Assembly: GCA_035631495.1 (NCBI GenBank)
Contig: DASQIQ010000252.1
Location: 1 to 36,640 of the forward strand
Reading direction: 5' to 3'
From: Micropepsaceae bacterium
GTDB lineage: Bacteria > Pseudomonadota > Alphaproteobacteria > Micropepsales > Micropepsaceae
DNA length: 36,640 bases
The notes under the pieces are model-generated. The model did not search any database. It worked only from the letters and a program-made list of their open reading frames with translations, and had not been told where the DNA came from. Made by a program: the position numbers and the translations under genes. Shown piece by piece: positions 26,736 through 31,472 of this stretch. Within the stretch, counting starts at the first letter, position 1. The number at the start of each line of letters is the position of its first letter.

Positions 26736-27665
26736 ATGGCCACCACGAAGAAACGTCGAAAAGACGAACCCGAGGCTGAAACATCCAAACCTGCGCCGCG
26801 GCCCCGGATTCCCGGTCTATCGGCCCGGCCGGTCTGGCAGGGCATGCTGCGCCTATCGCTGGTGAGCTGCCCGGTGGCCCTCTACAAGGCCACGTCGCGC
26901 GCGAACGATATCTCCTTCAACCTGCTCAACCCCAAAACGAACAATCGCATCCGCATGGTCCCGACGGATCCGGAAACCGGGCCCGTCGACCGCGCCGATT
27001 TGGTGCGCGGCTACGAGGTCGAGAAGAACCGCTATGTGATCATCCAGGACGAAGAGCTCGATGCGGTGAAGCTGGAGACCACCCACACGCTCGACATCGA
27101 GCGCTTTGTCGATGCGGATTCGATCGACCGGCTGTTTTTCGACGTGCCCTATATTCTTCTTCCCACGGACGATATCGCCGTGAACGCCTATGCGGTCATT
27201 CGCGAGGCAATGCGGCAGACTCATCGCGTCGCCTTGGGGCGCGTGGTGATGCACACGCGCGAAAGGCTGATGGCGATGGAGCCGCGCGAGAAAGGGCTCC
27301 TGGTCCATTCGCTCAGGATGCGTGATGAGGTCGTCAATCTGCAGAAAGCGCTTGAATCGATTCCGGACATGAAACCCGACAGGCAGATGGTCGAGATCGC
27401 GGAAAAGATCATTGCGCAATTGGAAGGCCCGTTCGACCCCGATGAATTCCGCGACCGCTATGAGGAATCGCTGCGCGATCTCATTCGCCGCAAAGAGAAG
27501 GGCGAGAAGCCGACGGTTTCGGCACCTCCCGCCGAGCCGAGCAATGTCATCGATCTGATGGCGGCCTTGAAGAAGAGCCTCGGCGCCAAGGGCGCGCCAC
27601 CCAAGGGCAGCCCGACCAAACAGGCGACAGCCCCGGCCAAACCGTCCAAGAAGCGCGCGCGTTAA
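26736..27665 (+). CDS. ku: Ku protein (NHEJ DNA end-binding)
   Basis: VWQGMLRLSLVSCPVALYKATS...ISFNLLN...YEVEKNRYVII..EEL is the bacterial Ku core, with the usual basic Lys/Ala/Pro C-terminal tail. Confidence 0.95.
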   Translation: MATTKKRRKDEPEAETSKPAPRPRIPGLSARPVWQGMLRLSLVSCPVALYKATSRANDISFNLLNPKTNNRIRMVPTDPETGPVDRADLVRGYEVEKNRYVIIQDEELDAVKLETTHTLDIERFVDADSIDRLFFDVPYILLPTDDIAVNAYAVIREAMRQTHRVALGRVVMHTRERLMAMEPREKGLLVHSLRMRDEVVNLQKALESIPDMKPDRQMVEIAEKIIAQLEGPFDPDEFRDRYEESLRDLIRRKEKGEKPTVSAPPAEPSNVIDLMAALKKSLGAKGAPPKGSPTKQATAPAKPSKKRAR

Positions 27666-27680
27666 ATCTCATGGCACGAT

Positions 27681-28082
27681 TTACCCCCTCCCCTTGCGGG
27701 AGGGGGATAGGGGGAGGGGCGCTTCGCGAATTGCAGCGTCAATCATATCGAGCACTCCATCCATGTTCTCGAAAATATCCGGATTCCAAAAGCGTAAGAC
27801 GCGAAAATTCTCTGTGCGAAGCCAATCTGTTCTACGTTTATCGTGGTCTGCCTGCGCGACTTCCGCGTGTTGCCCGCCGTCGACTTCGATGACCAAGCGT
27901 GCGGGAAGACAAACAAAATCGCCGAAATATGGACCGAGAGGAAACTGACGACGAAAACGAAGGCCGTGAAACTGCTTACGGCGCAATTTTTGCCACAGCA
28001 GTTTTTCGGCTTCGGAGGATTGTTTGCGCAAGGCGCGCGAACGGAGGGTTGCTTTACCCCTCCCCCTCGCCCCCTCCCGCAA
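27681..28082 (-). CDS. DUF559 (Vsr-like endonuclease fold) protein
   Basis: LRKQSSEAEKLLWQKLRRKQFHGLRFRRQFPLGPYFGDFVCLPARLVIEVDGGQH...RVLRFWN is the DUF559 hallmark. Both protein termini are encoded inside the flanking repeats. Confidence 0.85.
   Translation of the reverse strand: MREGARGRGKATLRSRALRKQSSEAEKLLWQKLRRKQFHGLRFRRQFPLGPYFGDFVCLPARLVIEVDGGQHAEVAQADHDKRRTDWLRTENFRVLRFWNPDIFENMDGVLDMIDAAIREAPLPLSPSRKGRG
27684..27719. repeat. Left inverted repeat of the DUF559 cassette
   Basis: ccccctccccttgcgggagggggatagggggagggg. The first 23 nt form a perfect 9-bp-stem / 5-nt-loop hairpin. Confidence 0.85.
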
Positions 28083-28119: not shown

Positions 28120-30048
28120 CTACAGTTTCTTCAGTCTCTTCCACGCCGCGTCCAAGGATGCCGCGGAGGCCGCCAAATCTTTCCATGGATCGGGCCGCTT
28201 CGACATCGCCGTCGCACCCCGAATTGTAAACGCCGACGGATCGAGGCCTTTGCGCAATTGGCTCCAGGCAAGCGGCACGGCGATGGTCGCGCCTTCGCGC
28301 GCCCGCGGCGACCAGGGCGCAACCGCGGTCGCGCCCCGGCCGTTGCGCAAATAATCGAGGAAAATCTTTCCGGCGCGCTGTTTCTTGGACATGTTGGTGA
28401 CATAACGGTCGGGCGCCGCGCGCGCGACCTTCTCCGAAACGCCGAGCGCGAACGATTTGGCATCATCCCAGGTCACCGGCTTCTTGGGCGTTCCCTTGAT
28501 GGCGACCACCACATGCATGCCTTTGCCGCCGGTGGTCTTCACAAAGGGCGTCAGCCCGCAGGCCATCAGCACCTCGCGCATGTCCTTAGCGGCGTCCATC
28601 ACGCGCTCGAAGGACAATTCGGGCGCCGGATCGAGATCGAAGATCAAACGTTCGGGCGTTTCGGGATCGCGCGGCTTGCAGCCCCAGGGGTGAATCTCCA
28701 TTACCGCCGCCTGAGCAAGCGACACCAGGCCTTCCACGCTGTCGATGGCGTGAAAGGGCTGCTTCTCGCCGGCGGCCGGAATGGGCACGACCCCCGACGC
28801 GCCCGCGAGGACATGGCGCTGGAAAAAGCGCTCGCCGCCGATTCCTTCCGGCGCCCGCACCATCGAGATCGGCCTGAGCACGATATGCGGCAAGATGAGC
28901 GGGGCGATCTTCTCGTAATAGCGCGCGAGGTCGAGCTTGGTGACCGCCGCGTTGTTGCGCGTTGCCGGCCACAGAATTTTCTCGGGATGGCTGATGGTGA
29001 TGCCCGCGACGACATTGTCTGCCCGCGCGGCTGGCCTTTTCAACGATTTGGCGGTCGTCGATGTTTGGGCTGTTTGCATCATGTCTTTCTCCCCTTCCGA
29101 GCGTTCCTCTGCCTCCTGCACCGGCATCATCTGTTCCACCGCGACGGCACGCGCGGGCTTGTCGTCGCGCAAACCCTTGAAGGCTGCCTGCCGCAGCAAT
29201 CCGTCATGTGTGATGTTCGAGTACTCCACTTCCGCGACTTGCCTGGGCGCGACCCAGTGGATGTCCTTGGTGCGCGGCGGCTTGACGCCAGCGGTGAACG
29301 GCGATTTTGGCTGCTCGAGTTTCTTCAGTGCGCGCAGTACCGGCCCGGAATTCTCGGAGTTGAAACCCGTGCCGACGCGTCCAAGATAGGTGAAATCCTC
29401 GCCCCGGTAGGCGCCCACCAGTAGCGAGCGAAGTTTGGTCTGACTGCCCCACCAGGCGCCGATCACCACTTCCTGACCGCCGCGGCATTTCGCTTTGGTC
29501 CACAGATCGCTGCGGCCGGAACGATAGGGCGCGTCGCCGCGCTTGGAAATGATGCCTTCGAGATGGGCGCGGCAGGCGCTTCGCAAGAGTTCCTTACCCG
29601 ATGTCGAAAAATGTTCGACATAGCGGTAATGGGGAACATCGCTCCGGTTCGCCAGTAGCGTCGAGAGGAGATCCTTGCGCGCCGAAAGCGGTTGGCTACG
29701 CAAATCCACGCCCTCGAGGAAAAGAAGATCGAAGATGAAAAAAATCAACTCGGCCGTGCGCCCGTCCGAGAGTGCCTGCTGCAGTCCGGCAAAACTCGGG
29801 ATGCCCCGCTCGTCCAGCGCACAGATTTCGCCATCGATCATACAGTCGGGCAGACGCCTGCCTTCATGCGCGATTTCGGGAAAACGGTGGCTCCAGTCCA
29901 AGGCTTTGCGCGTGCGCAAAACCGCGCCGCGCTTCTCGGCCCGAAGCTGCATGCGATAGCCATCGAACTTGATCTCATGCACCCAGACCGCGCCGACGGG
30001 CGGTTCGTCCACCAGCCGGGCCAACTGGGGCGCCACGAACTCGGGCAT
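28120..30048 (-). CDS. ligD: LigD ligase plus polymerase/primase domains (NHEJ ATP-dependent DNA ligase), lacking the PE domain
   Basis: Ligase motif I EIKFDGYR near the N-terminus. C-terminal Pol domain (ITISHPEKILWP...FFQRH...FDLDP). The frame stays open 90 nt upstream of the ATG. Confidence 0.93.
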   Translation of the reverse strand: MPEFVAPQLARLVDEPPVGAVWVHEIKFDGYRMQLRAEKRGAVLRTRKALDWSHRFPEIAHEGRRLPDCMIDGEICALDERGIPSFAGLQQALSDGRTAELIFFIFDLLFLEGVDLRSQPLSARKDLLSTLLANRSDVPHYRYVEHFSTSGKELLRSACRAHLEGIISKRGDAPYRSGRSDLWTKAKCRGGQEVVIGAWWGSQTKLRSLLVGAYRGEDFTYLGRVGTGFNSENSGPVLRALKKLEQPKSPFTAGVKPPRTKDIHWVAPRQVAEVEYSNITHDGLLRQAAFKGLRDDKPARAVAVEQMMPVQEAEERSEGEKDMMQTAQTSTTAKSLKRPAARADNVVAGITISHPEKILWPATRNNAAVTKLDLARYYEKIAPLILPHIVLRPISMVRAPEGIGGERFFQRHVLAGASGVVPIPAAGEKQPFHAIDSVEGLVSLAQAAVMEIHPWGCKPRDPETPERLIFDLDPAPELSFERVMDAAKDMREVLMACGLTPFVKTTGGKGMHVVVAIKGTPKKPVTWDDAKSFALGVSEKVARAAPDRYVTNMSKKQRAGKIFLDYLRNGRGATAVAPWSPRAREGATIAVPLAWSQLRKGLDPSAFTIRGATAMSKRPDPWKDLAASAASLDAAWKRLKKL

Positions 30049-30059
30049 CTTGACGCGCT

Positions 30060-30794
30060 TCAGTGTTTTCGGGCGTTCCGCGCTCGGGCCATTGTTACGC
30101 GCGATGGACGGATCTTTTTTTTTACGATTATCGCCGGTTCAGCTGAAGGTTTGTCCTCATCGGCCGGCGCGCCCTTTTTGCGAGACGAGTGCCAGACCTT
30201 GGATTTCTTGCTGGACGCGATTTCCTCCAGCGTCCGGCCGGATTTCACGGAGGTGTCGGCGGCAAGAAGCGCATCCGCTTCACCGGGCAGTGCGAATTCG
30301 TCTTTTTCTTTGATGAGCAGCCAATTGTGGTGGAGCTTCCGCCCAAGCTTGGGCTTGTCGTCGCGCAGACGGATCAACGCCCAGCGGCCGTGCATGCGCT
30401 TGCCGTAGAGCAAGATTTTCAACTGGCCCTTGGCGAAATCGCCGCGCGGGTCATCGCTCTGCGGCGCCCAGGTTCCATAGTCCCAAAGCTGCACCGTGCC
30501 ACCGCCATATTGGCCTTGCGGTATGGTGCCCTCGAAGGTGCCGTATTCCAGGGGATGGTCTTCCACCTCGACCGCCAGCCGCTTGGTCGCCGGGTCGAGC
30601 GAAGGAACCTTCGTCACCGCCCAGGATTTGTAGACGCCATCCAGTTCTAGGCGAAGATCATAATGGAGCCGCGTCGCCGCATGGCGCTGGATAACGAAGC
30701 GCAGCGCTTTGGTCTTGGCGCGGGCCACACGCCCGCGCGGCTCCGCGGTGACGCCAAAATTGCGTTTGGCCCGATAGGTTTCCAGCCCAGCCAT
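30060..30794 (-). CDS. ligD: LigD 3'-phosphoesterase (PE) domain as a separate ORF
   Basis: YRAKRNFGVTAEPRG...FVIQRHAATRLHYDLRLE...SWAVTKVPSLDP...EDHPLEYGTFEGTIPQGQYGGGTV. Ends 17 codons after an A9 tract. Confidence 0.9.
   Translation of the reverse strand: MAGLETYRAKRNFGVTAEPRGRVARAKTKALRFVIQRHAATRLHYDLRLELDGVYKSWAVTKVPSLDPATKRLAVEVEDHPLEYGTFEGTIPQGQYGGGTVQLWDYGTWAPQSDDPRGDFAKGQLKILLYGKRMHGRWALIRLRDDKPKLGRKLHHNWLLIKEKDEFALPGEADALLAADTSVKSGRTLEEIASSKKSKVWHSSRKKGAPADEDKPSAEPAIIVKKKIRPSRVTMARARNARKH
30114..30123 (-). other. A9 homopolymer containing an in-frame A_AAA_AAG slippery heptamer at the PE / Lig-Pol junction
   Basis: Minus strand reads cgtAAAAAAAAAGatc. In the PE frame this is GTA AAA AAA AAG ATC. 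The -1 frame continues DPSIARNNGPSAERPKTLKRVKMPEFVAPQLA into the Lig-Pol ORF. Confidence 0.8.
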
Positions 30795-30824: not shown

Positions 30825-30980
30825 CTAGATACGCCCGATCAGCACCAGAATAAGAAGCACAACCACCACGGTGCCAAGCACGCCGCTCGGACCATAACCC
30901 CAGCCGCTGCTATAGGGCCAGCTTGGAAGTGCGCCGACCAGAAGCAGGATCAGGACGATAAGCAGAATTGTCCCTAGCAT
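30825..30980 (-). CDS. DUF3309 small membrane protein
   Basis: MLGTILLIVLILLLVGALPSWPYSSGWGYGPSGVLGTVVVVLLILVLIGRI is near-consensus DUF3309. Ends 30 nt upstream of the ligD PE start. Confidence 0.8.
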   Translation of the reverse strand: MLGTILLIVLILLLVGALPSWPYSSGWGYGPSGVLGTVVVVLLILVLIGRI

Positions 30981-31127: not shown

Positions 31128-31472
31128 ATGCCGCTCAAACTCAAACGCCGCCGCTTGCGCTGCTCGTTCTGCAAGAAGGCCGAGACCGAGGTGGCGAAAT
31201 TGCTCGGCGGGCCGGGCGTGGCGATCTGCGATTCCTGCGTCGGGATCTGCAACCGGATCCTGGAAGCCACCCCGTCGTCCTTCGTGGGTTGGGATTCAAT
31301 GGCGGACGCGCAATTGCTGCAATCGCTCAAGCCGTCGGAGGCCGCCGTCGAGGGCATGCGAAACGTGCTGCAGCAGCAGGTCGAAACCCTGCGCAAACGT
31401 GGGGTCAGTTGGGCCGATATCGGCGCGGCGCTGGGGGTTTCCCGCCAGGCCGCCTGGGAGCGGTTTTCGTGA
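31128..31472 (+). CDS. Orphan ClpX-type C4 zinc-finger (ZBD) protein with a C-terminal HTH-like segment
   Basis: LRCSFCKKAETEVAKLLGGPGVAICDSCVGICNRILE closely parallels the ClpX N-terminal zinc-binding domain. The C-terminal GVSWADIGAALGVSRQAAWERF looks like an HTH. Confidence 0.8.
   Translation: MPLKLKRRRLRCSFCKKAETEVAKLLGGPGVAICDSCVGICNRILEATPSSFVGWDSMADAQLLQSLKPSEAAVEGMRNVLQQQVETLRKRGVSWADIGAALGVSRQAAWERFS

Follow-up and report, generated by a model that had tools for sequence, protein, structure and literature searches.

The window analyzed here, a 36,640-nucleotide (36.6-kb) stretch of contig DASQIQ010000252.1 from a Micropepsaceae bacterium, carries a ligD gene of the bacterial nonhomologous end-joining (NHEJ) pathway that is interrupted by a change of reading frame at nine consecutive A residues (A9). 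The 3′-phosphoesterase (PE) domain is encoded by one open reading frame (ORF), the ligase and polymerase/primase domains (Lig-Pol) are encoded in another frame, and the same split is found at the same tract in ∼50 distinct lineages, down to ∼60% protein identity. Conserved programmed recoding of ligD at the A run is the best-supported explanation of this arrangement and, judging from the compared sequences, probably the correct one.

According to this explanation, standard transcription and translation would produce a stand-alone PE of ∼27 kDa that ends 17 codons past the A run. In a fraction of the expression events, slippage on A9 would carry expression from the PE frame into the −1 frame and generate a complete PE-Lig-Pol LigD of 891 amino acids (aa; ∼98 kDa). 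The likelier route would be the addition of one untemplated A by RNA polymerase, turning A9 into A10 in the mRNA; a −1 slip of tandem tRNAs on the in-phase heptamer A_AAA_AAG would lead to an identical protein and may play a part. In loci with an ATG, such as the one at 30048 in the window, reinitiation may also yield some free Lig-Pol. The consequence would be that one gene supplies free PE, for end healing, in a fixed excess over the complete, mutagenic ligase-polymerase, which would stay limited in amount. What the sequences show directly is a conserved site with its phase and frame relation, intact ORFs downstream, and start codons that are not obligatory; the occurrence of slippage, its efficiency, and its level (RNA polymerase or ribosome) are what we infer here.

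In the window, the PE ORF matches Pfam LigD_N (E = 1.3e-42, residues 36 to 142), its translation contains QRHAATRLHYDLRLE and DHPLEY, and it ends in ...IIVKKKIRPSRVTMARARNARKH*, with the stop codon 17 codons past the A9 tract. The Lig-Pol frame matches DNA_ligase_A_M, DNA_ligase_A_C, and LigD_Prim-Pol and contains EIKFDGYR and FDLDP. As known from Pseudomonas aeruginosa LigD, HYDLR and DHPLEY are PE motifs, EIKFDGYR is ligase motif I, and FDLDP is a polymerase/primase motif. On the minus strand at 30125 to 30111, the PE frame reads GTA AAA AAA AAG ATC (wider context, ...ATC GTA AAA AAA AAG ATC CGT...), and the base directly 3′ of the tract is the G at 30114. A first-pass annotation of this DNA had placed the split across this tract, had traced the Lig-Pol frame open back to 30138, and had observed the heptamer A_AAA_AAG in phase with the PE codons, with a −1 slip landing in the Lig-Pol frame. 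All of these statements hold on rereading and translation (Table 1). It had also anticipated a fused protein of about 890 aa. The Lig-Pol frame is indeed reached from PE by a −1 slip or by one extra A, and the conceptual A10 mRNA encodes an 891-aa product that aligned end to end (residues 1 to 891) as one high-scoring segment pair (HSP) with 80 of 80 fused LigDs from reference genomes (47 to 65% identity).

The conceptual product has the same three domains in the same order as the fused LigDs (Pseudomonas, Agrobacterium, and Mesorhizobium type), PE-Lig-Pol by Pfam and alignment, and the window also has the catalytic motifs and an adjacent Ku gene. However, canonical ligD is a single ORF without an A run in the linker, whereas the parts lie in different frames in the window and its related lineages, and gene callers predict two genes at this locus. 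The A9 tract is the sole run of at least eight A or T within the window, where 0.026 runs of nine would be expected from base composition. A Logan assembly of SRR6788489, 99.98% identical to the window over 5.8 kb, carries A9 at the same tract.

Table 1 Features of the ligD locus in the window
Feature	Position	Strand	Basis
LigD 3′-phosphoesterase (PE), linker, and 17-aa out-of-frame tail; zero-frame ORF, 244 aa	30060..30794	-	ORF list, Pfam LigD_N
A9 homopolymer, proposed slippage site (RNA polymerase +1 A and/or ribosome −1)	30115..30123	-	Sequence, relatives
−1 slippery heptamer A_AAA_AAG, in phase	30114..30120	-	Codon phasing
Dual-frame overlap: zero-frame tail IRPSRVTMARARNARKH*, −1 linker DPSIARNNGPSAERPKTL... 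into ligase domain	30060..30113	-	Translation
Lig-Pol −1 open stretch, ligase and polymerase/primase domains	28120..30138	-	ORFs, Pfam, motifs
Ku, NHEJ partner of LigD, convergent with ligD	26736..27665	+	Pfam Ku, E = 4.4e-43

Conservation of the split and of the A run

The PE ORF was searched against 5.8 billion protein clusters, and the best 120 matches, each a separate 90% cluster, were taken. These homologs were 98 to 67% identical to the PE ORF and all were 189 to 257 aa long (∼240), and none (0 of 120) was a full-length LigD. The sequence KK[KN] was present within the last 32 residues of 113 of the 120, inside an otherwise very variable linker. A comparison of orthologous junctions, which the first-pass annotation had proposed as a check, was then made with 53 distinct junction sequences from 80 fetched metagenome loci that carry the PE ORF. 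It showed A8 or A9 with an in-phase heptamer in 50 of the 53: 29 read NNA AAA AAA AAG, 11 read GCT AAA AAA AAG, seven read GCT AAA AAA AAA C, and three read NNA AAA AAA AAC. The remaining three (L087, L128, and L136) were aberrant. Among the 50 canonical junctions, the run was A9 in 39 and A8 in 11, none being shorter, and the heptamer was A_AAA_AAG in 40, A_AAA_AAA in seven, and A_AAA_AAC in three.

The shift from PE to Lig was −1 in nearly all of the split metagenome loci in which both parts could be placed (f1->f3, f2->f1, or f3->f2). The exceptions were L128, which has A10 plus an extra G (L128:∼1380-1400), and L136, which has A8 in phase 2; Lig is in the +1 frame in both, and their tracts represent either natural variation in run length or errors, the contigs being short. 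The zero-frame stop lay 4 to 67 nucleotides (nt) past the site among the relatives, and the tail was unconserved. For each of two split PE proteins, identical A9 tracts were found in three independent assemblies (ENA, an NCBI metagenome-assembled genome [MAG], and Logan). The clade consists of uncultured soil Alphaproteobacteria, its named members being Micropepsaceae and Rhizomicrobium MAGs. Taken at sequence level, the split is conserved and is neither an error nor a one-off mutation.

When representatives clustered at 50% were searched, the split clade collapsed to very few of them and many of the matches were fragments, and the result gave little information on breadth. A scan of a genome collection, in which the ranking favored long single HSPs, returned in-frame fused LigDs only and no split members; these served as the outgroup.

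The downstream part of the gene was also well preserved. The Lig-Pol −1 ORF was intact over ∼630 to 850 aa in ∼27 of the 28 relatives with enough sequence, and the Lig-Pol ORFs of relatives aligned full length with the window protein; Lig-Pol is, as these ORFs indicate, under selection. Independent initiation of Lig-Pol, as far as the start codons indicate, is not required. From the slip site to PxFxxP(Q/E)L, the conserved motif at the N terminus of the ligase, nine split loci lack any ATG, GTG, or TTG. For five of these (L113, L127, L137, L142, and L148), the first start in the open −1 frame comes only 21 to 87 codons past the site, and a protein begun there would be missing conserved ligase residues. 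Of the fused loci, 70% (n = 54) have a canonical start at the position of the ligase N-terminal "M", and 77% of the split loci (n = 57) do (Fisher p = 0.52). This means that start codons are as frequent in fused as in split loci, and nothing suggests that independent initiation has been selected for.

Selection on the nucleotides of the run, rather than on a Lys patch in the protein, is indicated because only the A run is conserved and because rare NNA codons precede it despite a GC content of ∼63%. Several trends in the sequences bear on this. First, in an ungapped alignment anchored on the heptamer, the A run was the sole conserved block, and the 36 nt upstream and 70 nt downstream held almost no information. 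Second, the codon before the Lys codons was GTA, GCA, TCA, TTA, or CCA in 34 of the 53 junctions, a rare NNA codon that extends the run. The genes average 63% GC, and outside the site AAA makes up only 35% of the Lys codons, and A is the third base of just 5% of the four-fold-degenerate codons; for a given x-K-K-K, the probability of A9G is therefore ∼0.05 × 0.35 × 0.35 × 0.65, or ∼0.004. Third, all but five of the 72 A/T runs of at least eight in the 903 kb of fetched loci (67 of 72) were at the ligD junction. Finally, substitution differences by codon position in the dual-frame overlap were 13, 35, and 34 (10 usable pairs only), the least variable position being the second position of the −1 frame, a phasing that weakly suggests that the −1 frame is read in the overlap.

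Route of slippage and rival explanations

Within recoding, transcriptional slippage appears modestly favored over ribosomal slippage. This route is an additional option, absent from the four explanations that the first-pass annotation had offered without settling on any. The fourth of these, programmed frameshifting that yields both a free PE and full-length LigD, stands in the broad sense of recoding on comparative grounds, but the dnaX-type ribosomal route that it named fits less well. Slippage by RNA polymerase would fit better because the run is at least eight, NNA codons extend it to nine, the 3′ base is G or C, and no stimulators accompany it. Runs of nine A or T cause high-efficiency slippage of RNA polymerase in bacteria, mostly as insertions (PMC5009743 and PMC1088944), chiefly of +1 and then of more, and the RNA:DNA hybrid is 9 to 10 bp (PMC5009743). 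Selection against such runs in coding regions starts at ∼9 in many genomes (PMC1088944), and An with n > 7 is a recognized motif class for programmed transcriptional realignment (PMC3711429). Both the window (A9) and the canonical junctions (A8 to A9) are at or above the slippage-prone length. The length and position of the run are conserved against the codon-usage background, and Lig is always in the frame reached by +1 nt among the canonical junctions. The junction peptide VKKKDPS would be common to both routes, whereas products with an extra Lys (KKKK) are predicted from A12 or A13 mRNAs and would arise from polymerase slippage only.

A mainly ribosomal, dnaX-type −1 frameshift is a sub-variant of recoding in which tandem tRNA-Lys would slip on A_AAA_AAG of an unedited A9 mRNA, and we consider it less likely than not. 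An in-phase X_XXY_YYZ heptamer followed by an ORF in the −1 frame is present in the window and in 50 of 50 canonical junctions; the direction of the shift is uniformly −1, and 40 of the heptamers end in AAG, the best heptamer in Escherichia coli (PMC4066793). Further points in its favor are that all A8 junctions end in G and all C-ending junctions carry A9, and that IS1 uses A_AAA_AAC without a known stimulator. However, conservation of the phase is automatic from descent within a coding region and so carries little weight, and the run is always longer, via rare NNA codons, than the six A's that the heptamer needs. Stimulators are also lacking, as the first-pass annotation had judged when it saw no strong hairpin and no upstream element resembling a Shine-Dalgarno (SD) sequence. 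No SD-like element was conserved upstream in the anchored alignment, whose flanks hold no information. The minimum free energy (MFE) z-score of the 55 nt past the site averaged +0.14 (n = 49 junctions), the same as distal coding sequence and no better than shuffles, and a downstream stimulatory structure (hairpin or pseudoknot) was rejected on this result. A search against Rfam gave chance matches only at E values up to 10, far below the gathering scores, and its frameshift elements were unmatched. GC-rich alphaproteobacteria generally carry tRNA-Lys(CUU) besides tRNA-Lys(UUU), and the former, if carried here, would remove the weak AAG pairing; no tRNA genes were found in the window. This weak pairing makes A_AAA_AAG slippery in E. 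coli, where ribosomal shiftiness of the heptamer depends on a single tRNA-Lys, and Thermus thermophilus, with two tRNA-Lys, uses polymerase slippage at its dnaX A9 (PMC5009743).

The main rival to recoding, although an unlikely one on the sequences compared, is that PE and Lig-Pol are plain two genes. Lig-Pol would then be made from its own ATG or by termination-reinitiation, and the A run would be irrelevant, for instance a conserved Lys patch. In the window, the ATG at 30048 to 30046 coincides with the conserved MPxFxxPQL motif, 12 nt past the PE stop, and the two genes annotated by gene callers agree with this arrangement, as do the canonical starts at the ligase N terminus of 77% of the split loci. 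Within the A8G subgroup, the stop codon of PE and a GTG often overlap as GTGA, and two loci without the run (L121 and L147, below) have such overlaps. Stand-alone PE, ligase, and polymerase proteins exist in other prokaryotes. However, two plain genes would leave the nucleotide conservation of AAA AAA AA[G/A/C] and of the preceding NNA codon unexplained at ∼63% GC, where the chance is ∼0.004. Starts are no more enriched than in fused LigDs, a functional ligase could not be initiated at any start in five loci, and the PE frame extends into the ligase motif in L120 and L127.

Several observations weigh against recoding. The evidence for it is comparative throughout, and all members of the clade are metagenomic or MAG sequences, with no cultured isolate identified among them. 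The run is only A8 in 11 junctions, and slippage on A8 is expected to be less efficient than on A9. With neither a conserved SD-like element nor a hairpin, a high-efficiency ribosomal shift of the dnaX type is unlikely. An ATG occurs at the ligase N terminus, a few codons from the PE stop, in 68% of the split loci including the window, so that termination-reinitiation could supply Lig-Pol there without recoding. Finally, L121 and L147 have no A run (e.g., AGG AAG AAG), and start and stop codons overlap as GTGA or ATGA where PE meets Lig, which means that a genuine two-gene arrangement is viable; these two loci apparently represent a transition from recoding to two coupled genes.

Phase variation, the third option of the first-pass annotation, is disfavored and in our estimate highly improbable. 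In such a contingency locus, slipped-strand mispairing would toggle the gene between A9 (OFF, PE only) and A10 (ON, full LigD). A homopolymer of nine is mutable, the clade includes two in-frame variants (L145 with A10 and L001 with A9C), and the runs of L128 and L136 are off length. However, the tract is nearly fixed. The OFF frame, with A8 or A9, is found in 50 of the 53 distinct junctions and, for two lineages, in all three independent assemblies of each, without polymorphism in tract length, and the ON allele is not common. Close in-frame relatives are essentially absent: a search with the junction only (PE C terminus, linker, and Lig N terminus) against the 5.8 billion clusters found no spanning relative at 60% identity or more. 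Its high-identity matches were one-sided and its full-coverage matches were at most 48% identical, apart from two intermediate fragments, both from contigs with additional frame breaks. In addition, Lig-Pol ORFs have stayed intact even between deeply diverged relatives, which implies that they are expressed in the "OFF" state.

The first two options, a homopolymer sequencing or assembly error and a one-off inactivating mutation such as a recent pseudogenizing deletion in this one genome, might be raised because homopolymers are error prone and one extra A would restore the frame, but both are effectively refuted, since the same split recurs in ∼50 lineages and in dozens of independent assemblies (JGI, ENA, NCBI, and Logan) with Lig-Pol intact, and the independent Logan assembly of the window's own sequence also has A9.

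Likeness to known recoded genes and significance

Recoding of ligD, if it occurs as proposed, would resemble several known cases without matching any of them. The T. thermophilus dnaX gene likewise has a sense-strand A9 inside a DNA-metabolism gene without stimulators of the E. coli type, and the A's added by polymerase there lead to a long (tau) and a short (gamma) protein with a common N terminus (PMC5009743 and PMC1088944). The polarity is opposite, however: the templated product is the long one in dnaX, where slippage leads to the short one, but it is the short one in ligD, where slippage would be required for the long one. Such reversed polarity has also been proposed for the two-ORF dnaX genes of Chlorobi, which have A10 (PMC3711429). 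In Shigella flexneri mxiE, two overlapping ORFs are fused only in mRNAs with one extra untemplated nucleotide, and the functional full-length protein is the trans-frame product (PMC1088944). Unlike ligD, mxiE belongs to a transcription activator family, its run is T/U rather than A, and the product of its upstream ORF has no known function, whereas the upstream product of ligD is a complete enzyme domain.

The E. coli dnaX gene has the identical heptamer A_AAA_AAG, in phase and with a −1 shift, and makes two products of a DNA-metabolism gene. It differs in having an upstream SD-like element and a downstream hairpin, neither of which is conserved in the ligD clade; the ligD run is extended to eight or nine A's, and the frameshift would give the longer product in ligD but gives the shorter one in dnaX. 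In E. coli copA, recoding between domains frees an N-terminal (metal-binding, chaperone) domain beside the full-length enzyme (PMC5009743). In that gene, however, it is the free domain that arises by frameshifting, standard decoding giving the full-length protein, and the heptamer context and the stimulators are different.

The mechanism is thus familiar, but neither the gene ligD nor the NHEJ pathway is known to use it in the literature searched. Few chromosomal, non-mobile bacterial genes have conserved frameshifting or transcriptional realignment (dnaX, prfB, copA, mxiE, csoS2, and a handful more), and we know of no NHEJ gene among the cases of conserved programmed recoding. No mention of a ligase, LigD, or NHEJ was found in the first 300,000 characters of a 2016 recoding review, in the GeneTack survey with its supplements, in a 2005 survey of transcriptional slippage, or in full-text searches.

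If the recoding is real, ligD would add a DNA-repair enzyme to the list of recoded bacterial genes. The PE module would be made deliberately in excess of, and apart from, Lig-Pol, which bears on the contribution of PE to NHEJ. Annotation would also need correction, as two-ORF calls or possible pseudogene flags would undercount the NHEJ-proficient soil taxa. A further and more doubtful idea is that the A run is a regulated switch, with the frequency of slippage set by nucleoside triphosphate (NTP) pools or by the elongation rate. Full-length LigD would then increase under starvation or desiccation and in stationary phase, conditions in which cells need NHEJ and have only a single chromosome copy, while free PE would be constitutive and act in trans on 3′-blocked ends, possibly for other ligases. 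Such a switch would be the first case in which recoding controls a bacterial pathway of double-strand-break repair.

Clade variants and neighboring genes

With its in-frame, run-less two-gene, and PE-Pol variants, the clade would offer a natural series for the gain and loss of recoding sites. In a neighbor-joining tree of the PE domain (support not assessed), the run-less fused LigDs and the A-run loci formed two separate contiguous blocks in the leaf order. Two in-frame fusions lie inside the A-run block: L145 has A10 (L145:3624-3633), equal at the DNA level to the state with one added A, and L001 has an A9C run (L001:3675-3683). If these two are real alleles and not assembly effects, slippage in them would yield a truncated PE instead, a dnaX-like polarity. 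They were the only ones with an A run of at least eight in the linker (A9 in L001 and A10 in L145) among the 80 fused genome loci together with L145, L153, L154, and L158 to L160. Also inside the A-run block are the run-less L121 and L147 and, without a ligase domain, the PE-Pol fusions L100 and L101. In L143, L146, and L149, likewise in this block, the split is between PE and Pol; TTGA closes the PE ORF, and the Pol domain is reached by reading on in the −1 frame.

In the Mesorhizobium/Rhizobium loci, a second ATP-dependent ligase-like ORF (25 to 29% identity to the Lig domain) was seen directly downstream of the fused ligD, at about 5600 to 6700 in L003, L008, L010, L012, L013, L020, L021, and L070.

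Around ligD in the window, a DUF559 (PF04480, endonuclease-like) ORF at 27681 to 28082 (minus strand) separates Ku from the 3′ end of ligD. In locus L164, Ku directly follows Lig-Pol, so the DUF559 ORF looks like an insertion specific to the window lineage. The synteny of ligD and Ku is retained in L164 and L167. Directly upstream of the PE ORF is a 51-aa ORF for a DUF3309 membrane protein at ∼30825 to 30980 (minus strand); the order DUF3309, PE, Lig-Pol is found in L161 to L167, with Ku downstream in L164 and L167. Further upstream of the ligD cluster, an ORF at 31128 to 31472 (plus strand), which adjoins a DUF1801 gene, consists almost entirely of a ClpX-type C4 zinc finger, an annotation taken from the identical locus L167.

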